NCBI GenBank assembly: GCA_963764625.1
Contig: CAVXTH010000007.1
Span: 96,001 to 160,000, forward strand
Reading direction: 5' to 3'
Source of the DNA: Candidatus Krumholzibacteriota bacterium
GTDB taxonomy: Bacteria; Krumholzibacteriota; Krumholzibacteriia; JAJRXK01
Length of the DNA: 64,000 nt
A program made the position numbers and the translations under genes. Within the stretch, counting starts at the first letter, position 1. Every line of letters begins with the position of its first letter. Positions 49,610 through 63,519 of the stretch are shown here, one piece after another. The notes below the pieces were generated by a model. That model saw only the letters and a program-made list of their open reading frames with translations. It had not been told where the DNA came from and ran no database searches.

Positions 49610-51945
49610 CTAGGGCGCGTCGTTCGGCCGCTGGAAGGTCTCGATCCGTATCGGATGGTACAACCGATCGAGGTAAGCCTGCAGCCCGCGGAGAATCCAG
49701 ATCGCGGAATCTCCCTCGGGGAAGATCACAGCCGCCAACTCGTCGCTCAACGGGTTGAAGGAGGGCAGACCGGCGGAAGCGTATGATTTCGTCAGGAGCA
49801 GAGAGCGCCCCGACTCGGAATCGACGAGGTAGAGAGCTTTGTTCAACAGTCCGATCCGCGGTGACCGCGAGGCAGCGACCGTCGCGATTCCAAGCCGGAC
49901 GATAGAAGACCTCAGACGGCGAGCTCAGGCGCTTCGTCTCGCCACTCTTCAGGTCGAGTAGGTGAATCCCGTCGCTCTGACGCGTCCACGCGATTCGATC
50001 TCCCGCGAAAGAGAACGAAGGAAAGCCATTTCCGCCGTCACGGGTGAGTTGCCGAAGTTCGGGGGTTTGGAGATTTTCGAGCCAGATTTCCGAGCTTCCG
50101 CTGCGCTGAGAAGAGAAGGCGATCCACTTGCCGTCGGGCGACCAGCTGGGCGAGATGTCGTTAGCGGGATCGGAGGTGATGGGCGTGAGCTTGTCGCGCG
50201 TCAAATCGTAGAGGGCGAGATCGACGTTGCCATTCTGTAGCACCGAGAGGGCCAGGGACTTGCCGTCGGGTGACCAGGAAAGGACATCCAAAAACTTCTT
50301 CTGGGTCAGGATAGTTCTCTCGCTGCCTCCGTCGACGGACCGAATGCAGATGCGGCTCTGATTCCCCGGGTCGCCGACTCGATAGGCCAGTGACTTGCCG
50401 TCGGGAGACCAGGTGGGACTGATGTATTCCTGATCTCCTCGGGGGTCACGCGTGCCATGGTGAGAGGATCGATCGTCAAAGGCGTACAATAGAGAATCGC
50501 GACCTCGGGACGAACGTAGATCTGGCGTACCGCAGCTCGCCGTTGATGGCGGCGCGGTCATACAGCAGCGGTCGCAGAGCCGGTCGCAAAGCATGGATCG
50601 TGAGTTTGTCGAGCATGAGATAGCGTGCGTGTTTCTCGGGCCAGGAACTCCATGATGTCTTCGTATGCAGCTACCGGAATCTCCACATACCTCGCACCGG
50701 CGTAGAATGCAAAATAAGGCTTACGATCGGCGACCAGATCACCGGGCTGGATGCGATTTTCGATTTCAGTATCTGGGCTGTCTTTCGGCTAAATGCGAAT
50801 GTGCCCGAGATGGGCGTCACGAGCAGCGGGTAGTTGAGCCATACTCCGACGCCCCCGGCGACGAGCAGGCGCGAAAGATAAGCATCCAGCGCCTCCGCTT
50901 CCCACCCAAAATCTCCACTGCCGATCAAGGCATAGAGAATCAGAATCGGAAGATAGGGCAAGAATGAAGCGGGGCTCACTCCGCGGCGTGAAGGCCGGAT
51001 AGACCAGAAATGGAACCAGGGCGGCCGCGAGGATTCCCGCGCCTCTTCCACAGGCCAAAGAGCGCCAGGAGAAAGGCAACCGGAAGCAGATGTCGATTCA
51101 GCAGCAAAAGCTCATGGGGCAGTCGCTTCAGGTAGTCCGCTACGGCACTGGTATCTGGGTCTGTTCCTCGAGTCACCTTCTTGGCCAGCTGGGAAGTGGA
51201 AGAATCGATCAGGGCTTCGCGCTTCTGCCAAGGTGGGCACTCAGGCCGAAGTTTCCCGACTTGCTCAAGCAGCTGCAACCTGTCCAACCGAAACCGAGAG
51301 CGCCGCGCTGCCCAGCACGTAAACCAGCGCAAAGCCGCCCAGAAGTCGAAGTACTCGTCGCGGTGGCGCAGTTTGAACAGGCTGAGGACGGCGACGATCC
51401 CGATGGCTTCGGGCCGGGTGATCGCGGCCATTCCCAAAGACAGCCCGCTCTGCCCGGAATGCTCTCGGGTGAAAAGAAGCAGGGCCAGAAGGACCCAGAA
51501 GAGATAGAGACGACTCCGACATGGTCATGAGCGAGTACTGGATGAAGATGGGCTTGTCGCGCCAAGCACGCAGAGCGCCAACCATAGCCAGTTCCCGGCG
51601 CACGAATCGACCGCACAACAGATAGAAGACGCAGAGCGATGCCAGCGCGGCGAGCAGCGACACGGTCTGCGCCGCGCGAACCCCGTCGTGAATGATCGGC
51701 AACAGCAGCGCGATGAACGCCGGATAGCCAATGGGGAACGCGCTGGCGGAGTTTCCCGAGAGAAGGGTCTTGGCCTGGTTGATGTAGTACGTACCGTCAT
51801 ACGAGACCAAATCGAAAGTCTTCAGAAAGGGAATGCGGGCGGCGAGACTGACCAGAATCAGCGCCGTGCAGGCGTAACGGTCTCGAAGTACGAATTGGCG
51901 CCGGGAATCTCGTTTTGGTGAGGATGAACGTTTGGGCTTGGTCAA
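49610..51945 (-). pseudogene. Multiply frameshifted GT-C (ArnT-like) membrane protein fused to a TolB-like PD40 beta-propeller
   Basis: Fragments in different frames: SYDGTYY/PIGYP, TRPEA, and WSPDGK repeats. At least 5 frame changes. Could be a sequencing artefact. Confidence 0.6.
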
Positions 51946-53909
51946 GTTCGGTCGTCCTCTAGGACTTCACGCACCTTGCGCGCCAGCATTTCGATTCCGA
52001 AGGGCTTCGGAATGAAGTGCACGCCCTGATCGAGTATGCCCTGCCTCGAGATGGTGTCTGCTGTATATCCTGACATGAAAAGTGTCTTGAGATCGGGTTT
52101 CGTTTTCAGCAACGAGTCTTGGAGTTCTTTTCCGCTCATGTTGGGCATGACGACGTCGGTGATCAAGAGATCGAACTCATCACGATGGTCTTTGAAGATT
52201 TGTTGCGCCGTTTTTGCCGAATCTGCGACGAAGACAGTGTAACCAATGTCCTTCAGAACGGTGGTCACAAGATCGCGAACCATGGGGTCATCCTCGACCA
52301 GCAGCACACTCTCCGTGGCCGGCTCGAGGTGGACGAGATGCGCACCACTAATCGGAGCGGGTCGTTCGCTGCAACTGGGAAAGTGCAGAACGAAGGTCGT
52401 TCCCTTGCCCACGTCGCTGCTGAACCGGATGAACCCTCCGTACTGGGCCACGACGCTCTGCACCGTCGCCAGACCCAACCCAGTGCTGGTCGCCTCGTCC
52501 TTTGTGGTGAAGAAGGGCTCGAAGATGTGATCACGCGTCGCGGGGTCGATCCCTCGTCCGGTGTCGCTCACCGCAAGCTGGACGAATTCTCCGGGGGCGA
52601 CATCTGGTTCGTGGGCGATTTCTTCGGGGGGCACCACTACGTTCTTGGTCTCGATCTGAAGGCGTCCGCCCTTCGGCATCGCATCGCGAGCATTGGCCGC
52701 CAGGTTGGCGAGAATGTGGTCGAGCTGGGAAGGATCGATCTTGATTCGCCACAGATCGGCTCCAGGCTTGAAGACGAGTTCGATGTCCTCGCCGATCAGA
52801 CGACCCAGGGTCACTTGCATTCCTTCGACCGCCGGGTTCAATTCCAACGAGCGGGGACTGATGATCTGCTTGCGCGAAAATGCCAGGAGCTGACGAGTGA
52901 GGTCGGCCGAGCGTCTGGCGGCCTTGTCGATCTCCCGGATCTCTTCCGCGAGGCCCTCGTTCAAGCCCGAACGAGTCAGAATCAACTCCGTGTACCCGAG
53001 AATGACGTTGAGCATGTTGTTGAAGTCATGAGCCACGCCGCCGGCCAGTCGTCCAATGGCCTCCATCTTATGGGACTGTCGCAGCTGTTCCTCGACCGAG
53101 CGCAGCTTCGTGACGTCCTCCACGAGGGATAGGACCCCGAGAACCTCGCCATCCGTTCCGATCAGCGGCGCGTTGTACCACTCGCAGAGAATGGTCTTGC
53201 CGCTCTTGGTCACGTTCTTGTTCGTGCTTCGCTTCCCCCCAGATGCGTTCATGAGATTCTGCCAGATCTTGTCTACGTGTTCCCGTGCATCATCGGGCAC
53301 GATGAACCTCGCATGATGACCAATCGCCTCCTCTTTCGAGTGTCCGAAGATTCGCTCCGCCGCGAGATTCCATTGCGTCGCCTTGAACTCCGGGTCCCAG
53401 GTGATGATGGCCATGGGGGATTGCTGGACGATGAGAGCCAGGCTCTCGCGGTATTCCCGATACTGTTTCGCGCGCTCCTTGCGCTCGGTGATGTCGCGGA
53501 CGATCGCGATGAGGACCGGTTGATTGTCGTAGGAAGAGTACACTCCGTAGATTTCAGCGAGATAGTTCGTGCCGTTCTTGCGATGTCCCTCGCGCTCCAG
53601 CGAGTTTGTACGTGGGTCTCGGGCCTGGTCCATGAACTGCGGAAGGTCCTCGATGGGATCGAGATCGAGGATCTCATTGATACGTTTGCCGATGAGCTCT
53701 TCCCGGGTATATCCGGTCAGATCCGCGAAGGTGGGATTCGCGTTCAGGATGGTCGTGTTCGCGTCGATGACGCAAATGCCGTCGAGCATGCTCTCGTAGA
53801 TGGCGAGCAGCTCGTCGAAGGACGGAATGGCGTGGCGCACGGATTGACCCCTCGCATGGACCCATCGCAGGGAATCCTGCTTGGAATGTTTGAGGGAAGC
53901 TGCCGGCAA
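51942..53909 (-). CDS. PAS-PAS hybrid histidine kinase with receiver domain (CckA-like)
   Basis: Two PAS domains, HDFNN H-box, NARDAM, FEPFFTTK, GLGL, receiver with LLVEDD, DVVMP, KP. Confidence 0.93.
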   Translation of the reverse strand: MPAASLKHSKQDSLRWVHARGQSVRHAIPSFDELLAIYESMLDGICVIDANTTILNANPTFADLTGYTREELIGKRINEILDLDPIEDLPQFMDQARDPRTNSLEREGHRKNGTNYLAEIYGVYSSYDNQPVLIAIVRDITERKERAKQYREYRESLALIVQQSPMAIITWDPEFKATQWNLAAERIFGHSKEEAIGHHARFIVPDDAREHVDKIWQNLMNASGGKRSTNKNVTKSGKTILCEWYNAPLIGTDGEVLGVLSLVEDVTKLRSVEEQLRQSHKMEAIGRLAGGVAHDFNNMLNVILGYTELILTRSGLNEGLAEEIREIDKAARRSADLTRQLLAFSRKQIISPRSLELNPAVEGMQVTLGRLIGEDIELVFKPGADLWRIKIDPSQLDHILANLAANARDAMPKGGRLQIETKNVVVPPEEIAHEPDVAPGEFVQLAVSDTGRGIDPATRDHIFEPFFTTKDEATSTGLGLATVQSVVAQYGGFIRFSSDVGKGTTFVLHFPSCSERPAPISGAHLVHLEPATESVLLVEDDPMVRDLVTTVLKDIGYTVFVADSAKTAQQIFKDHRDEFDLLITDVVMPNMSGKELQDSLLKTKPDLKTLFMSGYTADTISRQGILDQGVHFIPKPFGIEMLARKVREVLEDDRT

Positions 53910-54029
53910 GTCAAGGGGATAAGGGCCCGAGCCGGCCTTTCACGGCCAGTGGAGACTTGTGCATTGGCCACGTCGAGCCTACGCTATCGTGGTTCAAGAG
54001 GTCCGGTTCAACAACAAAGAAGCTCTCTC

Positions 54030-54869
54030 GTGCGGCAATCACCCTCCCTCGAACTCTCCGTGGTCATCCCCGTACACGACGAGGAAGCGAACGTCCACCG
54101 TTTGACCGAGGAAATCGATGCGGCCCTGAATGGCCTGCGGTGGGAGTGCATCTGGGTGGATGATGCTTCGGTCGACCTCACCCTCACCCGTCTCCGCGAA
54201 GTCCAATCGAACGGAAACGGATTGCATCGCGTGCTCTGCTTCCAGCGGCAGCGGGGACAGAGCGCGGCTCTGATCGCCGGCTTCAAGGCGGCCCGGGGGG
54301 AGTTCGTCGCCAGTTTGGACGGGGACGGACAAAACGATCCCAAGGACTTGCCGCGCTTGCTCGAAATCGCGGTGCGTGACGAACTGGACATGGTCAATGG
54401 CGTGAGGATACAACGGCACGACAACTGGATTCGCATCGTGTCCTCGCGCATCGGCAACGGATTTCGCAACCTCGTCACCGGTGATCACATTACCGACGTC
54501 GGCTGTTCCACTCGCGTTTTCCGCCGCGAGTTCGTCGATGCTCTCCCTCACTTCAAGGGCATGCACCGATTTCTGCCCACTTTCGTGCGGGCGGCAGGCG
54601 GTGTGATCGGTGAGGCTCCGGTTGCTCACCGTCCACGGGCGGGGGGACAAACGAAGTACGGCGTGGGCAATCGGCTTTTCCGTGGCCTGGTCGATACGCT
54701 CGGAGTGCGGTGGTATGCGCGCCGAGAGGTGAGAGTCGATGCCTCGGAAACCGATGTGAGGGAAGCGGAAGTCGTGGAGCTGAACGCGGCTCGAATGAAC
54801 GCAGCTCGGTCCAATGCGGACCGGGAGTTCTCGCTCAGTCCTGAAATCGAAGGCGGCCCCTCGCAGTGA
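54030..54869 (+). CDS. GT2 polyprenyl-phosphate glycosyltransferase (ArnC/DPM1-like)
   Basis: SVVIPVHDE, VDDAS, GQSAA, LDGDGQNDP, MHRFLP, HRPRAGGQTKYG. Confidence 0.92.
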   Translation: MRQSPSLELSVVIPVHDEEANVHRLTEEIDAALNGLRWECIWVDDASVDLTLTRLREVQSNGNGLHRVLCFQRQRGQSAALIAGFKAARGEFVASLDGDGQNDPKDLPRLLEIAVRDELDMVNGVRIQRHDNWIRIVSSRIGNGFRNLVTGDHITDVGCSTRVFRREFVDALPHFKGMHRFLPTFVRAAGGVIGEAPVAHRPRAGGQTKYGVGNRLFRGLVDTLGVRWYARREVRVDASETDVREAEVVELNAARMNAARSNADREFSLSPEIEGGPSQ

Positions 54870-55147
54870 TCGATCGCATCTGGCTTGCAGTAGGACTCGT
54901 GGCGCAGGGAATGTTCATGGGACGTTTCCTGGTGCAATGGATCATCAGTGAGCGTAAAGGTGAGAGCACCATTCCAGTCGCCTTCTGGTATCTGAGCATC
55001 GCCGGCGGTATTCTGCTTCTGGCCTATGCGTGTTGGCGGCGCGATCCCGTATTCATTCTCGGGCAGAGCACCGGCATCATCGTGTACACTCGCAACCTCG
55101 TGCTCATGAGGCGCAGTCGCAGAAGAGCACTGCAGGCGGATGCCTAA
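54866..55147 (+). CDS. Lipid-A-disaccharide synthase N-terminal (LAB_N) domain membrane protein
   Basis: RFLVQWIISE, PVAFWYLS, DPVFILGQ, YTRNL. Confidence 0.88.
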   Translation: MIDRIWLAVGLVAQGMFMGRFLVQWIISERKGESTIPVAFWYLSIAGGILLLAYACWRRDPVFILGQSTGIIVYTRNLVLMRRSRRRALQADA

Positions 55148-56645
55148 CCGTTCTTGGCTGTGGCTTTTCCTGTTGGCCTCGGTCGTGGCCTTCGGATTCC
55201 AGGGCACTCGTGGACTGAGTGATCCCGACGAAGGACGCTATAGCGAAGTCGCGCGCGAGATGCTCGTGAGCGGCGACCTTGTGCATCCCCAACTCGAAGC
55301 GCAACCGCACTACTCTAAGCCACCCCTGACCTATTGGTCGATCGCGGCCTCGATGGCGCTGTTCGGGCAGAATGAATGGGCCGCTCGCCTCTTTCAATCC
55401 CTGTCCTACCTGGCCACCATCCTGCTCGTGGCGGCGAGTGGCGTCGCGCTGTTCGGAAGTTCAGTGGGAGGGTTGGCGGGCATCGTATACGCGAGCATGG
55501 CGCTGCCCTTCGTGGCCGCGAACATCATCACCACCGACACGCTGCTGACCCTGTGGGAAGCGCTGGCCGTCTTCGCTTTCATTCGCGGGCGCAGTGCGAC
55601 GAGTCCTTCCGCCCGGCGCTTCTGGCCTGCGCTCTGTGGTCTCGCCTTCGGATTGGCGTTCTTCACCAAAGGTCCTCCAGGATTGCTCTTTCTGGCGGCG
55701 CTGCTCGTCTACACGCGATTGCCGGTCGGACGTCGCGATCGCGGGGCCCCCCTGCTCGACGGCCTGGGAATTCTGCTGCTCCTGGGGGTCGGATTGTGGT
55801 GGTTCGTCTATCTCGCCCTCACCACCAAGGGCATCACATCGTACTTTCTGGGCGATGAGGTCGTGGGACGTTTGGCGGGAGAGCACCATCGCAACGCGGG
55901 CCTGATGGGTGCCGTCAAAGTCTACCTGCCCATTCTGACTCTGGGGACGCTTCCCTGGTCGGTGACCTGGATCGTGGCGTGGCAACGGATGCGCAAGAAG
56001 ACTCCCGAGCTCACCCACCTCTGGCAGGCCTGGCGGCGTCGGCCCGCTCTGACCATGCTCGTGCTCTTGATTCTTGTTCCCCTCCTCGTCTTCACCCTCT
56101 CGCGCTCGCGCCTGCCTCTTTACGTCTTGCCTCTCTTCATTCCGATCTCGCTTGCGACCGCTCGCGCCCTTCAGCTCGCCTTTAAGAGTGCGGCGCGAGA
56201 CTTGGCCACTTTGCGTCTCCGCTCCGGTTGGGGTCTGGGGATCGGGGTATGGGTTCTGGTTCTTCTTGCCCTTCGCGTGGGCTACGCCCACTGGCCGGAC
56301 GAGGCCAACGCGCGTGCGCTGCATGGCAAGCTGCCGGTGACGCGCGCCGATGAGATCGTGGTGATCGATGGGGTGCGCTCGGTGCACGGGCTCGCCTTCT
56401 ACGATAGGCGTGAGCTGGAGTACGCTGCCTGGTCCAAGGACGAAGCGAAGCAGCGGGGTTGGTCCACCGTGCAGGCCAAGCTCGAGCGCCTACAGGCTCA
56501 TCCCGCAGAGCGTTATCTCTTCTTGGTGAAGCCCCAATCAGTCGAGAACTTGCAGTCGATGCTCGAGGGACGTGGTCTCGTGGCAGAGACCACCATCAAA
56601 GGGAAGAAGATCGTCGCTCTGTTGTGCGGCTCCGGAAATTCCTAG
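55140..56645 (+). CDS. ArnT-like GT-C (family 39/83) glycosyltransferase
   Basis: DPDEGRYSEVAREM, KPPLTYW, TKGP, many TMs. Confidence 0.92.
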   Translation: MPNRSWLWLFLLASVVAFGFQGTRGLSDPDEGRYSEVAREMLVSGDLVHPQLEAQPHYSKPPLTYWSIAASMALFGQNEWAARLFQSLSYLATILLVAASGVALFGSSVGGLAGIVYASMALPFVAANIITTDTLLTLWEALAVFAFIRGRSATSPSARRFWPALCGLAFGLAFFTKGPPGLLFLAALLVYTRLPVGRRDRGAPLLDGLGILLLLGVGLWWFVYLALTTKGITSYFLGDEVVGRLAGEHHRNAGLMGAVKVYLPILTLGTLPWSVTWIVAWQRMRKKTPELTHLWQAWRRRPALTMLVLLILVPLLVFTLSRSRLPLYVLPLFIPISLATARALQLAFKSAARDLATLRLRSGWGLGIGVWVLVLLALRVGYAHWPDEANARALHGKLPVTRADEIVVIDGVRSVHGLAFYDRRELEYAAWSKDEAKQRGWSTVQAKLERLQAHPAERYLFLVKPQSVENLQSMLEGRGLVAETTIKGKKIVALLCGSGNS

Positions 56646-57334
56646 CCCAGACTCCCCAGGTGCTCACAGCCCACGACGTACTTGCTGTTCTTGGTAACCA
56701 GGAGCGACAACCCCTGGAGCACCCGGCCCACTTGCTCTGCCGCGCCGCGCTGAGCTTTTACCTCCACCACGAGAGTCCCCGGCGGTTGCGTGGCGAACCG
56801 GAGATTCGGCCGTGTGGTGGCCCATTGGTTCCAGTATTTCTGGTGCGTGTCTATGGTCACCCGGACGGCACGGTTAGCAGTAATCAGATAGCTGCGGAGA
56901 TAACGATTGATGATCACGGGCTGGTCGAGAGTTCGAGAGGCGGATCGGACGTCTTCGGGAACGCTGCGCATCATCAGATCGAGGAAGGCACTCCAACTCA
57001 TCGATCGGAGGTTCACCCGCTCCGTTACCGGGAAGGATCGTTTCCAGCCCAAAGCGCCGTGCTTCAGTTTGAATTCAAGATGGCCGCCCGCACCGTCCAT
57101 CGCCTCGCCGTACCATCGGTACCGCAGTTTGCTGCGATCGCTGACGCCGGCGTAGTTCTGGTTGAGCCGCGAGAGGTTCCGCGAATCGAGGTAGACGTTG
57201 TTGACCCATCGCTGGGGGTGAAGTTTCCGTAGCGCGAGGGGATGAACTCTCACTTGGGCCAAGAGCCGCGGCAAATACCCTTCCGGGGCGGCCAGCTTGA
57301 CTTCGTAGCGCAGGTCTTCCACCGGAATCATCAT
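56642..57334 (-). CDS. VTC (polyphosphate polymerase / CYTH-TTM) domain protein
   Basis: RYEVK, VYLDS, KLRYRWYG, LEFK, RVTIDT, VVEVK, SKY. Confidence 0.85.
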   Translation of the reverse strand: MMIPVEDLRYEVKLAAPEGYLPRLLAQVRVHPLALRKLHPQRWVNNVYLDSRNLSRLNQNYAGVSDRSKLRYRWYGEAMDGAGGHLEFKLKHGALGWKRSFPVTERVNLRSMSWSAFLDLMMRSVPEDVRSASRTLDQPVIINRYLRSYLITANRAVRVTIDTHQKYWNQWATTRPNLRFATQPPGTLVVEVKAQRGAAEQVGRVLQGLSLLVTKNSKYVVGCEHLGSLG

Positions 57335-59921
57335 TCAGTTCCCCAAGACGCCCGTGGCGTACAATTTGCTCACGTCGAAGTCGCTGGTCGGCAGAGTGCG
57401 ACCATCGAGGGTGACGGTGCAGCCGGTTTGCACCAAGGAGACTCTCTGAACCGAAGGAAACTCGATGTGAGTCGCATCGATCGAGGCCGGGCCATAGACC
57501 GGCTTCTTGACGTAGGCGGCAAGCCCGATCTTCGCGTTGCGAATCACCCCATCTTGAACAATGACGGTGGAGAGGTCCTTGCTGGCCACTCCGATGCTGG
57601 TTTCATCCACTTGTAGCTGCGCCACGCGCACATTCGATTCCTCGCCGGCCGAAATCGCCTTGTCACTGATGCGCAGGGCCTGAATGCGACGCATGTCCAC
57701 GGTGCTACCGCTCAAGTCGAGCGCGTCTCCCCCGACATCGTGGAAGGAACAGTCCGAGACGCTGCCCTGCACGAAATCGCAATCGAGCGCGTCGGAGAGG
57801 CAGTCGCCAATGATGGAGTTTTCCATCGAGAAACGGGTCCGCACCAGATGAACCGCATCTTCGCCCCGGTGGTTCTCGAAGCGGCAGTCGCGAATCTCCA
57901 ACGGACTCTGGTACGCGGTCACCCCCCCGGTGAGGAACCATCCCGGCCGGTCGACCCCCTTGGTCGCGCGAACCTCCACGTGATCCCAGCGGCTCAATGA
58001 ATCGACATCCATGAGGACCAGACCACCCCAATCTTCACCCTCGGGCAAGAACCGCACCGGCTTGTCTTTGGTACCCGAGCAGTTTAGGGGAGCGCGGGCG
58101 AGGATGACCGCGCCCGTTTTCATCCGCAGGGTCACGCCGGGCAAAAATCGGGTGGTCACGGCGGGAAGGATCAGGTCGTGATCGAGATGCCACTCCCCGG
58201 GCATGACACTCAGATCCCCGGTGCGCGCGTCCCAGTGAAGCCAGGACTCGCGGCTTGCGAAGAGCGCGGGGTCAGCGGGGGCGGCGGGCAATACCGCCGG
58301 CTGGGCGAAGGACTCGGTGGCCGCACGGAGAACGCACTCACGCCGGGTCTGCGGCAGGGCGAAACTCTGGAACACCGCGTCGTACTTGCTCGCCCTGGGC
58401 AGGGAGGGAGAGCGGCACGTGAAACTCGTGCTCTTGCCGCGACTCCAGTTTCTCATAGGCGGAGAGGAATAGTGGTTGAGGAAGCTCGAAGCTTCGGTTA
58501 CCCACTCTCACCGCGAGTAGCTCGAGCGGGACGTCGCAGACCGAGCCCACCCGCAACTTCAAGCCCTCTCCGTCCGCAGAGTACTTCCCCTCCAGGGCCA
58601 CCGGGGTTTGCAGCTTGCCCCGGAAGAAGCGCTGTCCATCCAGAAGCGCCGGCGCGGGGCTTTGCAACTGCGGCCATTCGAGGTGCAGGGCGAGCAGACG
58701 GTCGTGCAGGCCCTTTCCGTATTCATCGAGCAGCGACTTCGACCACGCGGGATCCGAATACTCCCACAGCGCTCTCATGTAGAGCGACAGCGCCTCTTTC
58801 TGGGCCAGAAAGTCGCGAATCCACGGGTACCAGCCGCCGCGGCTCATGGAGAATTGCTGCCCGGCGAAGAGATCGGAGCGCATCTTGTCTTCCTCCGACC
58901 AACCCCAGGGCTCCCCGTCGAAGGCGATGGGCTCCAGCCGCGTCGTCACCGGATTGTAATAGAAACGGAGGTTGTGCCAGATGAGGGCGTGATCGGCGCC
59001 CCACACCCGGCAGAGGGCCAGAAAGCGCGCCATGCTCTGAAGGTCGAAGACCTGCGAGGGCTTCAGTTTTTCTCGTTGGAAGCCCTCGAGCAGGTGTCGC
59101 GTGGCTTCCATCTGTTCGCGCATGACCGGGTTTTCCTGAAGCTTGCTCTGCGAGAAGAAGCTCACCTGAGCGGTGCGAAAGTCGAGGTGATCCAGGTCGA
59201 ACCAGCCGAGGTGGAAATCGTTGTGGGAAATGCGGCGCTGTTCCCAGTGGGGATTCTCGTCGAACTTGGCGATCGGGGCTTCCGCGCGTTTCTCGCTCTC
59301 CAATAGCTCCTTGGCGAAGTGCTCCTCGACCGCGTAGATCCCTTTCGACTTTCCGTTGAAGACGAGTTTGACGAAATCGTAACGCGGCGCCAGGATGCCC
59401 TCCCGGCGTACGCTGGCCAGGAAGAGCCACTCCCCGAGGTACCGGCGCACCCACGGAGCTTGGACCGAGAAGCGGCGCATTCCGTGGTATTGCGTGCCTT
59501 TCTTCGTCTTCACCCGGAACGACCATTTGTCGGTTTGGAAATGGTCGGGCCAGTCCCCTTTGAGCCGCATCTTCACCGGAATCGTTCGACCGTCGGCCTC
59601 CAATTCGGCCGGCACTTCATCGCTGTCGTCGCTGAAGAGGAGCCCCACGCGCAAGGCCTCTTCGCGCTTGGCGAGAATCTTCTCGTAGTCCTTGAACTTC
59701 ATGTGGAAATGGAGCTCGTCCAGGGGTGGCGCGTGCAATTTGGCGTGGAGCAGCGATTTGGGAATGTCCAGTAGCATTCCCTTGGGATCGTGTTTCACGC
59801 GCCGTAGGAAATCGATTCGCAACAGCCCCAAACCGGCTGCGATGACGAAGAGGGCGAAGAGGAAAATGGACAGGCGCCCGGGCCAGCGCCGTTTTCGCTC
59901 GCCCGAATCGAGGATCTTCAT
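57335..59921 (-). CDS. CotH-family kinase with C-terminal right-handed beta-helix; one frameshift near 58400
   Basis: N-terminal TM, MRLKGD, KWSFRVK, YAVEE, DHALIWHNLRFYYNP...PIAFD. Beta-helix repeats DALDCD, DALDLS, DKAISAGE, GVASKD. Split into ORFs 58338-59921 and 57335-58456. Confidence 0.82.
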
Positions 59922-59927
59922 GGCGAC

Positions 59928-60608
59928 TCAACCACCCAGGAAGTTCTGTTGCTCCACGAAGGTAACTCGGGCGCCGGGAAACGCGCTGCGCAGGTGGTCC
60001 ATGCCGGCGATGAGCTCCTTGTCGCTGCGGCATCGCACGAAGTAACTCGCCTGCAGCTCGCCATCGGCCACGTCCATCCGCCGCATGTCGGCAAAGCTCA
60101 AGTGTTCAGCCAGGATCGAGTGAATGGCATCGAAGGTCACGCGTCCGTCCTCGACAGAAGGCACGATGATGTTCAGGAAAAGATTCTCGTCCTTGCGGTG
60201 CGTTCCCGAGCGGGAGACCAATGCTCCCACGATGAGGATCACTGGGGCCGCCGCCAGGGCGGAGTAGCGCTGATCGGCGCCCAAAGACAGGCCCACCGCG
60301 ATGCACAAAAAGAGATAGGCCAGCTCCTCGGGCTCCTTGATGGGGGTACGGAAGCGTACGATCGAGAGCGCCCCGACCAGCCCCAGGGAGAGAGCCAGCG
60401 AGGACTTCACCACGCTGATGATGAGAATGGTGGTCAAGACGATGAAGGGGAAGGTCTTGGCCAGGGCTACTCGATTCGAGAGACTGCGGCCGAAACGGAC
60501 GTAGTGCCAGGAGAGGAGCAGCGACAAGACGATCCCCAGCCCCAAGTTCAGGAGCAGATCGCTGAGCGAGAGGGGGGTCGCCGCCAATTGGGTAATGCTG
60601 TTGGGCAT
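59928..60608 (-). CDS. DUF4956 membrane protein
   Basis: SSLALSLGLVGALSIVRFRTPIKEPEELAYLF, about 4-5 TMs plus a small C-terminal soluble domain. GAGGAGG SD. Confidence 0.88.
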   Translation of the reverse strand: MPNSITQLAATPLSLSDLLLNLGLGIVLSLLLSWHYVRFGRSLSNRVALAKTFPFIVLTTILIISVVKSSLALSLGLVGALSIVRFRTPIKEPEELAYLFLCIAVGLSLGADQRYSALAAAPVILIVGALVSRSGTHRKDENLFLNIIVPSVEDGRVTFDAIHSILAEHLSFADMRRMDVADGELQASYFVRCRSDKELIAGMDHLRSAFPGARVTFVEQQNFLGG

Positions 60609-60685
60609 CGTGCCTCCTCGGATCCCTTGAGATTCCGGGCCAGAGACTAGCAGAGGGCAGGCCAGGTGGCGACGGCTTCCGTGCC

Positions 60686-60714
60686 TTGACAGGATCGAGC
60701 TTGCAGACCATACT
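60686..60714 (+). promoter_or_regulatory. Sigma70-type promoter of the carbohydrate locus
   Basis: TTGACA (60686-60691), 17 nt spacer, CATACT (60709-60714). Confidence 0.75.
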
Positions 60715-60735
60715 TTGATCGGTGTCCGTACAAAG
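60713..60735. promoter_or_regulatory. Putative ROK repressor operator
   Basis: 23-bp imperfect palindrome CTTTGATCGG-TGT-CCGTACAAAG overlapping the -10 and +1 positions, upstream of an operon containing a ROK regulator. Confidence 0.6.
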
Positions 60736-60811
60736 GGTGGATTTTGATTCCTGCCCAGGACTCTCATCTTGGGGTGTGAACCATTCCTCGCAGTTTCTTG
60801 GAGGCTTTCGC

Positions 60812-62210
60812 GTGAAGCAGCTCGTCGCTCGACTCTTCGCTCTCTATGGCGCTCTCGATGCTGATCTTCCAGCTGGGATGCAGTGGACGTGACCCCATGG
60901 GTCTCGAGCCGGCGCGGGCCTCCGTCGACCCCCTTGTCTTCGGGGATGACTACGACGCTGACGTCTACTTCCAGGCATTCTTCCAGACGAACTATACCGC
61001 GGTCCAGGTGGACTCCGTCTACGCCTACAACGGTTACGCTCCTGACGGCGCGCGCTCCCTCAAGATCACAGTCGCACCGATCGGTTCCGCCCTCGGTCTC
61101 TATTCCGGGGGAGTTCTGACCTCGGCGGCAAGCCGGGACCTGGCCGATTACAACGCTCTGACTTTCTACGCACGGGCAAGCGCGGACATTTCCCTCGACC
61201 TGGTGGGGTTCGGGAACGACAACACCGGCACTTCGCTGTATGAGGCCAGACGTTCGGGGCTCGCTCTGACCCGCGATTGGCAATACGTCGTCGTTCCCAT
61301 TCCCGCGCCCTCCAAGCTCATTGCGGAGCGAGGGCTCTTCACCTTCGCGGAGGGTCTGCAGGAAGAGTATCCGGACGGCTACGACATCTGGGTCGATGAG
61401 ATCAAGTTCGCCAAGGTCGACGGCATCTCGGTCTTCCGCCCCAGCATGCGCTCGGTGAGTCGCCAGTATTTCGTGGGCGCGACGGTTAGCCTCGACGGAA
61501 CCTCCACCATCTTCCAAGTGAATGGCGCGTTCGTCCCGGTGGACCATTCGCCCAACTACTTCGACTTCGTCTCGTCCGATCCCGCGGTGGCCACGGTGAG
61601 CCAGGGCAGAGTGAGGGTCGTGGGTACCGGAAGCGCCACGATCACCGCCACGCTCCAGGACACACCGGTCCTCGGCAGCGTCGCGCTCACCGGATATGAG
61701 CCTCCCGCGGTCGCTCCTGTGTCGCCCACCCTTCCCGCGGCCGACGTGATCTCGATGCTGAGCGACGTCTATCCGAACGTCCCCGTCGACACCTGGCGCG
61801 CGGATTGGGGAGGGGTCACCACCCAGATCGAGGACTACTCGGTGGCCGGCAACCACATGAAGCTGTACTCCTCGTTGAACTGGGTGGGCATCGAGTTCCT
61901 GAACCCGGTAATCGACGCCAGCGCCATGACCCATCTCCACGTGGACGTCTACGCACCGGCCGGCACGAATTTCCGGCTGAAGCTGGTCTCGTTCCCCACC
62001 GAACTCACCCATTCGGTGGAGACGGTGGAAAAGGTCTTCGATGCCAGCTCTACGCCCGTCTTCACTCCGGGCTCCTGGTCGTCGCTGGACATTCCGCTGA
62101 GCGATTTCCAGCTTCCCGCTTCCTGGGACTGGGCTCGCATCGGGCAGCTCGTTCTCGCCTCATCGGATGCGCAGCTCGTGCTGGTGGACAATCTCTACTG
62201 GCACAAATAA
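60812..62210 (+). CDS. Carbohydrate-binding lipoprotein (CBM-like, Ig-like and CBM-like domains)
   Basis: Lipobox QLGC, RDLADYNALTFYARAS, SSDPAVATV Ig-like, MTHLHVDVY. The best start (GGAGG + GTG 60812) is 1 nt out of frame with ORF 60846-62210. Confidence 0.7.
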
Positions 62211-62253
62211 GATCGTCTCGCCTCGAAGCCTCAACCGTGAGAGAATTGGCGAG

Positions 62254-63519
62254 ATGCACAATCACAACCTGAATCGCAAGGGGTTACGGCGCGTCGATGC
62301 CGATGGCCCGCGCCCCTTGGCCGACGCCGTGCTGCGGCTCATCTGGCAGGAGCGGCGCATCTCCCGGGCGGAAATCGCACGCCACGCCAAACTCTCCCGC
62401 TCGACCGTCTCGGAGATCGTCAACGAGATCCTTCCCATGGGACTCATCGCCGAAATCGGCGAAGGCCCCTCTCGCGGCGGCCGTCCGCCCATCGTGCTGG
62501 AATTTTGTGACGATGCTTGTGTCATCCTGGGCGTCGAAATGGGCGCGGCCCACGTCGTGGTCACCCTCATCGATCTGCGCGGCAAGGTGTTGAGCTGGGA
62601 ATCGCGCGAGCATCCCGTGCGCACCGATCCTCCCGGCACTCGACGGCTCATCGCGGAACTCTGCAAGGCCTGCCTCGCGGCCTCGGCGGTAGGCGATCGC
62701 CCCCTGGTCGGAATCGGGGTCGCGGTTCCTTGCCCGGTCGACCCCTTCGGAAACCACCGTCTTTCGAATGTAGTGCTGCCCGCCTGGGAAGGGCAGCTGG
62801 GCCTGGAGGACCTCGCCAAGCACTACGGCGTGCCCCTGATGGTCGACAACGACGCCAACCTGGGCGCGTTGGCCGAGCAATGGTGGGGAGTGGGACGGGG
62901 CGTCGACGACATCGCCTACATCAAAGTCGCCACCGGAATTGGATCCGGGCACGTCATCGGGGGAGAGATCTATCGGGGCGCGACCGGCGTCGCGGGCGAA
63001 ATCGGCCACATCGCCATCGACCCGCAAGGCAAACCCTGCATCTGCGGCTTGCGCGGCTGCCTTGTCACTCTGATCGGCGGACCGGCCCTGGTCGCGCGCG
63101 CCGAGGAGCTGAGCCGCGAGTATCCCCAGAGTACGCTGGCCCAGGGGAAGCACAGTGTCCGCGAGATCGAGGACGCCGCTCTCGCGGGCGACCCGCTCGC
63201 CTTGCAGGTGGCGCAGGAAGCGGCTGGCTATCTCGGCCGAGCCGTCGCGAGTCTGTTGAATCTCATGAATCCCTCCCTGGTGATCGTGGGAGGGGACTTG
63301 GCTCAGCTCGGGGACCTTCTGATCGGCCCCCTCCGCGACACGGTCGAGAAGCGCACGCTCGTCAGCTCGGTCGCCGCGGCACAGATCCGCACCAGCGAAC
63401 TCGGTTTCCGCTCCACGGCCATCGGCGCGGCGACTCTGGTCCTGAAGGCCGCCCTGGCCGACTCGAGGTTGTTTCCCCCGGTGGGGGAAGCTAAATCGCC
63501 AATTGCAGATAGGTCCTGA
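62254..63519 (+). CDS. ROK family transcriptional regulator
   Basis: HTH SRAEIA...LSRSTVS, GGRPP, DNDAN, GIGSG, GEIGH, CICGLRGC. Confidence 0.93.
   Translation: MHNHNLNRKGLRRVDADGPRPLADAVLRLIWQERRISRAEIARHAKLSRSTVSEIVNEILPMGLIAEIGEGPSRGGRPPIVLEFCDDACVILGVEMGAAHVVVTLIDLRGKVLSWESREHPVRTDPPGTRRLIAELCKACLAASAVGDRPLVGIGVAVPCPVDPFGNHRLSNVVLPAWEGQLGLEDLAKHYGVPLMVDNDANLGALAEQWWGVGRGVDDIAYIKVATGIGSGHVIGGEIYRGATGVAGEIGHIAIDPQGKPCICGLRGCLVTLIGGPALVARAEELSREYPQSTLAQGKHSVREIEDAALAGDPLALQVAQEAAGYLGRAVASLLNLMNPSLVIVGGDLAQLGDLLIGPLRDTVEKRTLVSSVAAAQIRTSELGFRSTAIGAATLVLKAALADSRLFPPVGEAKSPIADRS

Follow-up and report, generated by a model that had tools for sequence, protein, structure and literature searches.

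A candidate envelope-directed polyphosphate module: a DUF4956, CotH-like/beta-helix, and VTC gene trio in a Krumholzibacteriota genome and its relatives across bacterial phyla

Why should a putative polyphosphate polymerase, a multi-helix membrane protein, and a kinase-fold protein predicted to face outward be encoded together? The question is raised by three genes in a 64,000-nucleotide (nt) stretch of a Candidatus Krumholzibacteriota genome (assembly GCA_963764625.1, contig CAVXTH010000007.1, positions 96,001 to 160,000), hereafter the window, whose own positions are used for all coordinates below. The three genes are located on the minus strand and encode, in reading order, a DUF4956 membrane protein (226 amino acids [aa], Pfam PF16316; 59928–60608), a CotH-like / Ig-like / right-handed beta-helix protein (matched by the Pfam CotH and Beta_helix families; 57335–59921), and a stand-alone VTC (triphosphate-tunnel) domain protein (230 aa, Pfam PF09359; 56642–57334). 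The spacing between the genes is 6 nt for DUF4956/CotH (59922–59927) and 0 nt for CotH/VTC (57334/57335); the open reading frame (ORF) map thus confirmed the tight coupling that a first-pass annotation of this DNA had described. The ATG at 60608, preceded by a GAGGAGG ribosome binding site 6 nt ahead, is a plausible start for DUF4956; the longer frame given by the ORF map (59928–62012) is an upstream read-through of the DUF4956 frame and overlaps a divergent gene (60846–62210). We tentatively interpret the trio as an envelope-directed polyphosphate module that serves a surface-glycan enzyme, a reading that we consider slightly more doubtful than secure.

The middle gene required particular attention, as it reads in the window as two overlapping minus-strand ORFs in different frames, one for the CotH part (527 aa, 58338–59921) and one for the beta-helix part (373 aa, 57335–58456). 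Three genomes of the same genus (G001, G002, and G004) carry both parts in a single ORF of 863–890 aa; the G002 gene encodes 861 aa when counted from its ATG. Compared with G002, the window holds one surplus base at the overlap of the two frames, placed at 58379–58381 by this comparison and by contigs of four public soil and salt-marsh sequencing runs (X1–X4) aligned to this stretch. The surplus base is missing from the contigs of all four runs: a 485-nt contig from X1 lacks the base at 58381 and is otherwise identical to the window, while contigs from X2, X3, and X4 lack the base at 58379 and are 90–99% alike to the window. Because none of the four runs carries the base, the split results from an assembly indel, and the actual protein is 861 aa long; a pseudogene and programmed frameshifting were both considered for this gene and were ruled out on the same evidence.

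We assessed the linkage of the three families in two surveys. The first took, out of at least 576 VTC relatives found in species-level genomes, the best 80 by likeness to the window VTC, and the ORFs of these loci were screened by phmmer with the window proteins; the loci span Acidobacteriota, Chloroflexota, Gammaproteobacteria, Myxococcota, Nitrospinota, Planctomycetota, Omnitrophota, and others. DUF4956, CotH, and VTC were found in this order on one strand at 60 of the 80 loci; CotH was fused to a beta-helix in 47 of these 60, and the middle protein contained only CotH in the other 13, nine of which have a second CotH/beta-helix gene just downstream. DUF4956 and VTC were directly adjacent at nine further loci, four loci were cut by a contig end, and the other seven comprised two cut loci, three variants with a gap or a short middle gene, and two loci in which no partner was found. 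The second survey was an unselected even sample of 151 genomes of the phylum, searched with the three Pfam families. VTC was present in 38 genomes and DUF4956 in 41, i.e., in all 38 with VTC and in three more, while CotH was present in 55 (35 of the 38 with VTC and 20 of the 113 others). DUF4956 was located on the same contig and strand at 42 of 43 VTC places, the single exception lying at a contig end; the gap between VTC and DUF4956 was below 500 nt at 38 places and approximately 2.8 kilobases (kb), with CotH between, at four places including the window. CotH was found within 8 kb at 23 of the 43 places (CotH rows chosen by eye). Among 14 control genomes, VTC and DUF4956 occurred in the same three. 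The linkage of the trio is far beyond chance, with VTC and DUF4956 as a fixed core of near-obligate neighbours and CotH as a frequent third part. The genome-neighbourhood survey that the first-pass annotation had named as a check thus found co-occurrence to be common rather than rare; its picture of a fixed triad held for the core of VTC and DUF4956, whereas CotH proved facultative.

The linkage is also found in other gene orders. Many genomes of the phylum carry a sister order, CotH–VTC–DUF4956, in which VTC scores far higher against Pfam (E of approximately 1e-40, versus 1e-21 for the window VTC) and CotH is canonical, with LTD and FlgD_ig domains. A third order, DUF4956–VTC–CotH/beta-helix, is followed by a sugar transferase and a GT2 glycosyltransferase. 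The cassette of the window also occurs in the cultured bacteria Rohdeia mirabilis Pla163 and Ornatilinea apprima P3M-1, and the sister cassette in Bacteroides thetaiotaomicron. Linkage that survives such reshuffling argues for function rather than descent alone. The CotH type follows the VTC type: the divergent VTC clade travels with a CotH that carries His in place of the catalytic Asp (described below), and Pfam-typical VTC travels with Asp-type CotH. In three sister cassettes (L094, L095 [G118:C19:1-9772], and L098), HlyD-type adaptor genes come after the trio; L095 also has genes for a DUF2490 outer-membrane barrel and for the ATPase and permease of a MacB-type ABC system, and a second CotH occurs in both L094 and L095. 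The sister cassette looks like an envelope-spanning set.

The window VTC protein matches PF09359 with 78.5 bits (cut-off 23; 7.1e-22) across profile positions 19–233 of 235, and the VTC proteins of the two nearest loci are 75% and 69% identical to it. It contains the motifs RYEVK (residues 9–13), KLRYRW (69–74), LEFKLK (86–91), VVEVK (189–193), and NSKY (216–219); R9, E11, K13, R71, R73, E87, K89, E191, K193, S217, and K218 are invariant across 29 relatives. A phmmer search of the solved chains with the window VTC alone gave no match, so that a profile was required; the profile of the 29 relatives found only yeast Vtc2, Vtc3, and Vtc4 at E < 1e-4. R71 and R73 align with Vtc4 R264 and R266 (HRLRWYG in 3g3q, chain index 79/81 with an offset of 185, versus KLRYRWYG in the window protein). 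By their motifs, E191/K193 (VVEVK) and S217/K218 (NSKY) may correspond to Vtc4 E426 and the C-terminal Ser-Lys, and the other invariant residues may likewise have counterparts among the Vtc4 residues reportedly described by Hothorn et al. in 2009. Mutation of R264 and R266 together with E426 inactivates the yeast VTC complex (PMC9911596). A hydropathy scan found no hydrophobic or transmembrane segment in the window VTC, in agreement with the soluble protein with ExK, R, K, and SKY residues that the first reading of this DNA had reported. The VTC protein is thus predicted to be a cytoplasmic VTC-domain enzyme that keeps the catalytic arginines of Vtc4, with a putative polymerase activity.

The membrane protein is assigned to DUF4956 by a Pfam match of 56.9 bits (cut-off 30.6; 2.8e-15), and its nearest Atlas clusters are all DUF4956; a match to MgtC (PF02308) stays below cut-off (19.2 versus 31.4 bits). 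The AlphaFold model (predicted local distance difference test [pLDDT] 84) places helices at residues 15–39, 53–66, 71–86, 93–110, and 114–134, consistent with the multi-helix protein originally noted, and after them a C-terminal beta-alpha-beta-beta-alpha-beta ACT-like domain (141–219). Structure searches with this model (Foldseek and VIA-align) found solved folds with the tail alone, namely ACT domains and the MgtC C-terminal domain 2lqj. A motif, VVKSS...VRFRTPIKEPEE, occupies residues 66–95, and conservation peaks in helix 3 and the following loop, KSSLALSLGLVGALSIVRFRTPIKEPEEL; R46, K68, R85, R87, K91, E94, E95, R176, and R177 (the last two in the tail) are invariant in 44 DUF4956 sequences. 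Based on the positive-inside rule and longer homologues, DUF4956 is predicted to be a five-helix MgtC-like inner-membrane protein with its N-terminus outside and its C-terminus inside (N-out/C-in), so that its ACT-like domain would be cytoplasmic and could meet the cytoplasmic VTC protein. The longer homologues, 15 proteins of 442–502 aa with extra N-terminal sequence, each representing a 50% identity cluster, all open with a signal-peptide-like segment (P0061, P0062, P0066, P0067, P0070, P0075, P0079, P0085, P0087, P0092, P0094, P0095, P0108, P0110, and P0182). Ten of them carry a ConA-like (3-keto-disaccharide-hydrolase) PF06439 domain ahead of helix 1, eight above the Pfam cut-off; such a head is predicted to be outward-facing and sugar-binding. 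One protein, P0043, is a clean natural fusion of DUF4956 and VTC, in the order allowed by the N-out/C-in topology.

The middle protein matches CotH (PF08757) with 33.5 bits (cut-off 23.8), and its match to Beta_helix (23.5 bits) is just below the cut-off of 25.9. A structure model of the G002 orthologue, to which the two window pieces are 78% and 66% identical, has a pLDDT of 90.4 and comprises an N-terminal helix, the CotH domain, an Ig-like sandwich, and the beta-helix. The top Foldseek match of this model was Bacillus cereus CotH (5jda; E 7.6e-12, TM-score 0.68 on the target), and the beta-helix matched GH87 alpha-1,3-glucanase, the periplasmic alginate epimerase AlgG, phage tailspike depolymerases, pectate lyase, and NosD, suggesting the kind of fold that acts on polysaccharides outside the cytoplasm. 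A hydropathy scan identified a signal-anchor helix at residues 18–36 (59814–59870, minus strand). A single hydrophobic segment is present in 36 of 41 relatives, and 32 of 40 have more K/R before this segment than after it; this charge bias suggests that the bulk of the protein should lie outside the cytoplasm. The membrane-anchored periplasmic CotH claimed by the first-pass annotation was therefore upheld by the topology prediction, which gave an outward-facing protein with one N-terminal helix.

The active site of the middle protein departs from that of known CotH kinases. The codon of His311 (58989–58991, minus strand) occupies the position of the kinase catalytic aspartate, D228 of B. subtilis CotH, in an alignment to 5jd9. 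D228Q or D251A inactivates B. subtilis CotH (PMC7821199); D228 and D251 would correspond to 5jd9 chain indices 224 (NFD) and 247 (PWD), with a constant offset of 4. Although the profile match of the CotH-like protein to 5jd9 is weak (E 7.6e-5), three methods placed the His on the canonical Asp column, i.e., a MAFFT alignment of canonical and beta-helix types, the profile against 5jd9, and hhalign (97.3% probability). While all 13 canonical CotH proteins aligned from the phylum have D, N, and D, the beta-helix CotH clade has H in 46 of the 48 rows that cover the catalytic column; N317 and D335 (the D251 equivalent) are conserved in 45 of 48 rows each and are both present in the window protein, whose active-site stretch reads GADHALIWHN...PIAFD. 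The middle protein is therefore predicted to be an enzyme of the CotH fold but no canonical member of this kinase family, since the catalytic Asp is replaced by His; of the beta-helix-bearing CotH kinase originally proposed, the fold and the beta-helix stood, whereas the window holds two ORFs (owing to the indel) and the catalytic residue is changed. At Anaerolineae loci (L028:6439-7971, L047:6322-8004, L052:6442-7965, L092:6472-7995, and others), the shorter CotH-only protein between DUF4956 and VTC has lost most active-site residues (His, Asn, and Asp); these loci have a complete CotH/beta-helix gene after VTC, and the short middle gene looks to be a degenerate paralogue that has stayed at its site.

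In bacteria, polyphosphate is attributed to PPK1 and PPK2. A search of this genome, which is 96% complete and in nine contigs, gave no match to PPK1, PPK2, DUF2490, PelG, or DUF202 (which we take to be the family of the eukaryotic VTC membrane helices), and one Ppx-GppA was found; judged by these family searches, VTC appears to be the only recognisable polyphosphate synthase of the genome. Within the family to which the window belongs, its own genus has VTC in three of four genomes and PPK1 in none of four, and three other genera have PPK1 in four of five and VTC in none of five; in the phylum sample, two other families are VTC-rich and PPK1-poor, and one family shows the reverse.

Several neighbouring genes are related to sugars. 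A GT2 gene, a small gene with LAB_N (lipid A biosynthesis N-terminal domain), and an ArnT-like PMT_2 gene are located on the plus strand at 53949–56645 (Pfam); they look like a set for lipid-linked sugar transfer that converges on the trio, the PMT_2 and VTC genes overlapping by 4 nt at their stops. The ArnT-like PMT_2 gene sits in the same place in G002 (L005). Because these lipid-A-type genes lie beside the trio, the host most likely has two membranes. On the other side, the intergenic region 60609–60845 is shared with a divergent plus-strand gene for a 454-aa Big_2-domain protein (60846–62210). The next gene (plus strand, within 60846–63519) encodes a ROK-family regulator whose N-terminal part is a winged helix. 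A promoter and terminator scan for the operon found nothing above shuffled expectation; 60609–60845 contained no promoter-like site on the minus strand and one on the plus strand (60686–60714). A hybrid sensor kinase with two PAS, HisKA, HATPase, and receiver domains is encoded on the minus strand at 51942–53909, 2.7 kb from the trio. The flanks of the 80 loci include further CotH paralogues in 13 loci, an unknown family in seven, and scattered glycosyltransferases and a Wzt ABC protein. In 13 loci, the flanks also contain a family that matches metallophosphoesterases weakly and is usually encoded directly behind VTC on its strand (L049:8666-9655, L078:8694-9836, L036:8892-9953, and 10 more loci; absent from the window); a calcineurin-like match was obtained for one of four members tested, and one member is an FGE-sulfatase, so this cluster is not clean.

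In the envelope-directed module that we tentatively favour, VTC would dock on the cytoplasmic face of DUF4956, through the conserved RFRxxIK loop and the ACT-like domain, and would use ATP to make polyphosphate at the membrane; DUF4956 would, probably in oligomeric form, pass or present the polymer to the periplasmic side, where the CotH-like/beta-helix enzyme may use polyphosphate, or work beside it, to modify a surface glycan. The linkage, the DUF4956-VTC fusion, the conserved VTC residues, the predicted topology, the folds, and the absence of PPK1, PPK2, and DUF202 matches from the genome all count for such a module, and so does the sugar context: the GT2, LAB_N, and ArnT-like genes alongside the trio, and the glycosyltransferases, sugar transferase, and Wzt in the flanks of relatives. 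The first-pass annotation had further proposed that VTC and DUF4956 form a split Vtc-like synthase and translocator; linkage, topology, and the conserved VTC residues support this putative arrangement well, whereas homology of the membrane part is not supported. DUF4956 was considered as a homologue of the eukaryotic VTC channel and rejected, as no likeness to the VTC membrane domain could be detected; because DUF4956 is MgtC-like and the genome has no DUF202 match, "split Vtc" can be used as an analogy only.

A number of observations weigh against this module. CotH is missing from three of the 38 VTC genomes and, within 8 kb, from 20 of the 43 VTC places of the phylum sample, and the K/R balance around the anchor is nearly even in the window CotH-like protein itself. 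The helical part of DUF4956 matched no solved fold in the Foldseek and VIA-align searches (a weak test for a helical domain), and the nearest family, MgtC, has been described as a regulator and not as a channel (10.1101/2024.04.20.589940). P0043 is the single clean DUF4956-VTC fusion: P0047 spans the junction but looks frameshifted and error-ridden, and a search among 1.84 billion representatives gave no clean coverage of both halves in its best 150 matches. Complementarity between VTC and PPK1 in the phylum is weak and confounded by kinship, with PPK1 in nine of 38 VTC genomes versus 41 of 113 others in a sample whose genomes are kin and not independent. Bacterial VTC proteins could also be hydrolases, like many triphosphate-tunnel enzymes, and full-text literature searches on the family names and on bacterial VTC gave no functional study and no test of any step of the chemistry.

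Three other explanations were considered. Polyphosphate threaded out by VTC and DUF4956 might itself be the phosphoryl donor of the CotH-like enzyme, with a glycan or protein bound on the beta-helix being phosphorylated or polyphosphorylated. This proposal draws on every point that speaks for the envelope-directed module and, in addition, on the near-invariant His that replaces Asp while the metal-binding Asn and Asp are kept, which would fit a changed donor or a phospho-histidine route, on the pairing of the divergent VTC clade with His-type CotH and of Pfam-typical VTC with Asp-type CotH, and on the resemblance of the beta-helix to periplasmic or extracellular polysaccharide enzymes. However, we know of no kinase-fold enzyme that uses polyphosphate, the canonical Asp-type CotH of the sister cassettes implies that His is not required for the donor idea, the Asp-rich face of the beta-helix would repel polyphosphate unless metal ions bridge the two, and CotH is not an obligate partner of VTC. 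Polyphosphate as a CotH donor is accordingly speculative, and we regard this explanation as unlikely. Its most specific form, in which VTC would be the only polyphosphate synthase of the cell and feed a DUF4956 oligomer, and a His-CotH would take phosphate from polyphosphate (perhaps through phospho-histidine) and write it onto a surface polysaccharide, is quite unlikely; if true, it would represent an ATP-independent kinase-type system outside the cytoplasm.

The trio may instead be a regulatory module, with DUF4956 as an MgtC-like membrane regulator that senses a metabolite through its ACT-like domain, VTC making or breaking cytosolic polyphosphate and so tuning the phosphate/ATP balance or exopolysaccharide output, and the CotH-like protein acting independently at the surface. 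The weak MgtC match and the tail resembling the MgtC C-terminal domain point this way, as do the nearby hybrid sensor kinase, the argument of a Streptococcus intermedius preprint that polyphosphate may stay cytoplasmic (10.1101/2024.04.20.589940), and the suggestion that CotH may regulate Pel (Whitfield et al., PMC7112168). Such strict adjacency to VTC, in two gene orders and in many phyla, would be unexpected of a pure regulator, as would lectin domains with signal peptides on the outer end of DUF4956, envelope-spanning adaptors, and outer-membrane barrels, and we consider a purely regulatory role improbable. VTC could also be a tunnel-type triphosphatase or NTPase that energises or gates DUF4956, which would move a cation, a lipid-linked sugar, or a glycan substrate. 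Most characterised triphosphate-tunnel enzymes are hydrolases, and the literature and solved-chain searches gave no bacterial VTC-family structure or assay; yet the VTC profile matches only Vtc2, Vtc3, and Vtc4 at E < 1e-4 and not the CYTH hydrolases, the polymerase arginines are invariant, and the genome has a Ppx-GppA while no other polyphosphate synthase was found in it. A hydrolytic VTC of this kind therefore seems rather improbable to us.

If VTC acts as a synthase, as the envelope-directed module assumes, a third, yeast-type polyphosphate synthase with its own membrane partner would change the reading of polyphosphate-free or ppk-less bacteria. An operon that joins a polyphosphate maker to a membrane protein and to a kinase-fold enzyme facing outward also makes testable the question of what energy source supports phosphoryl transfer outside the cytoplasm. 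The cassette is common in environmental phyla (species-level genomes contain at least 576 VTC relatives of this clade), and its families also occur in Pel biofilm loci of streptococci and in Clostridium perfringens NELoc-2 (PMC7112168, PMC11677781).

The trio is known in print beside Gram-positive Pel loci. The accessory genes that Whitfield et al. 2020 give for these loci include cotH, DUF4956, DUF4832, and a polyphosphate polymerase gene, and the authors suggest that CotH may regulate Pel (PMC7112168). For S. intermedius SIR_1592–1594, a bioRxiv preprint describes SIR_1594 as a secreted CotH with FN3 that keeps its catalytic residues, SIR_1593 as VTC-like, and also a four-helix MgtC-like protein with an ACT domain, and argues that polyphosphate may stay cytosolic (10.1101/2024.04.20.589940). 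The families are also listed for C. perfringens NELoc-2 (PMC11677781), and a DUF4956/DUF2490 pair appears in a Bacteroides thetaiotaomicron transcriptome table (PMC10434189). The preprint reports that the trio was not found outside pel operons (10.1101/2024.04.20.589940); in contrast, our surveys show that it is common there. The first-pass annotation knew of no functional characterisation of the triad, and the literature searched likewise gave none, although two reports had already placed the trio in print (PMC7112168; 10.1101/2024.04.20.589940).

Among known systems, the eukaryotic VTC complex (yeast Vtc4/Vtc3/Vtc1; PDB 3g3q, 7ytj, and 8i6v) is like the trio in having the same Pfam tunnel domain with the R264/R266 pair kept, and may be compared with it, by analogy, in that the enzyme is tied to a membrane partner and synthesis-coupled transit has been proposed (PMC9911596). 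In contrast, the window VTC is a stand-alone protein of 230 aa in which only the VTC domain was found, without SPX, DUF202 is found in neither the protein nor the genome, and the partner is unrelated to that of yeast, being an MgtC-like protein with five predicted helices and an ACT-like tail. The Gram-positive Pel accessory genes represent the same three families encoded side by side (cotH, polyphosphate polymerase, and DUF4956), as in the window; however, the host of the window most likely has two membranes, the gene order in the window is different, the genome has no PelG (the only pel gene product searched), and, instead of contiguity with pelDEADAFG, the neighbours are GT2, LAB_N, PMT_2, Big_2, and ROK genes. 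The CotH proteins also differ, with FN3 and kept catalytic residues in SIR_1594 (10.1101/2024.04.20.589940) versus a beta-helix and His for the catalytic Asp in the window. The Bacillus spore-coat kinase CotH (5jd9/5jda) has the same fold as that predicted for the window protein, and the Asn and the D251-equivalent Asp are kept, but sequence likeness is weak (the profile E-value given above), and the window protein has His for D228, a membrane anchor, a predicted extracytoplasmic location, and a fusion to Ig-like and beta-helix domains. Finally, the MgtC family (Salmonella and Mycobacterium) resembles DUF4956 in its N-terminal helical membrane domain and C-terminal ACT-like domain, as the match to 2lqj suggests, whereas DUF4956 scores below the MgtC cut-off, has its own invariant KSSLALSLGLVGALSIVRFR...K.PEEL motif, and keeps VTC as a fixed neighbour.

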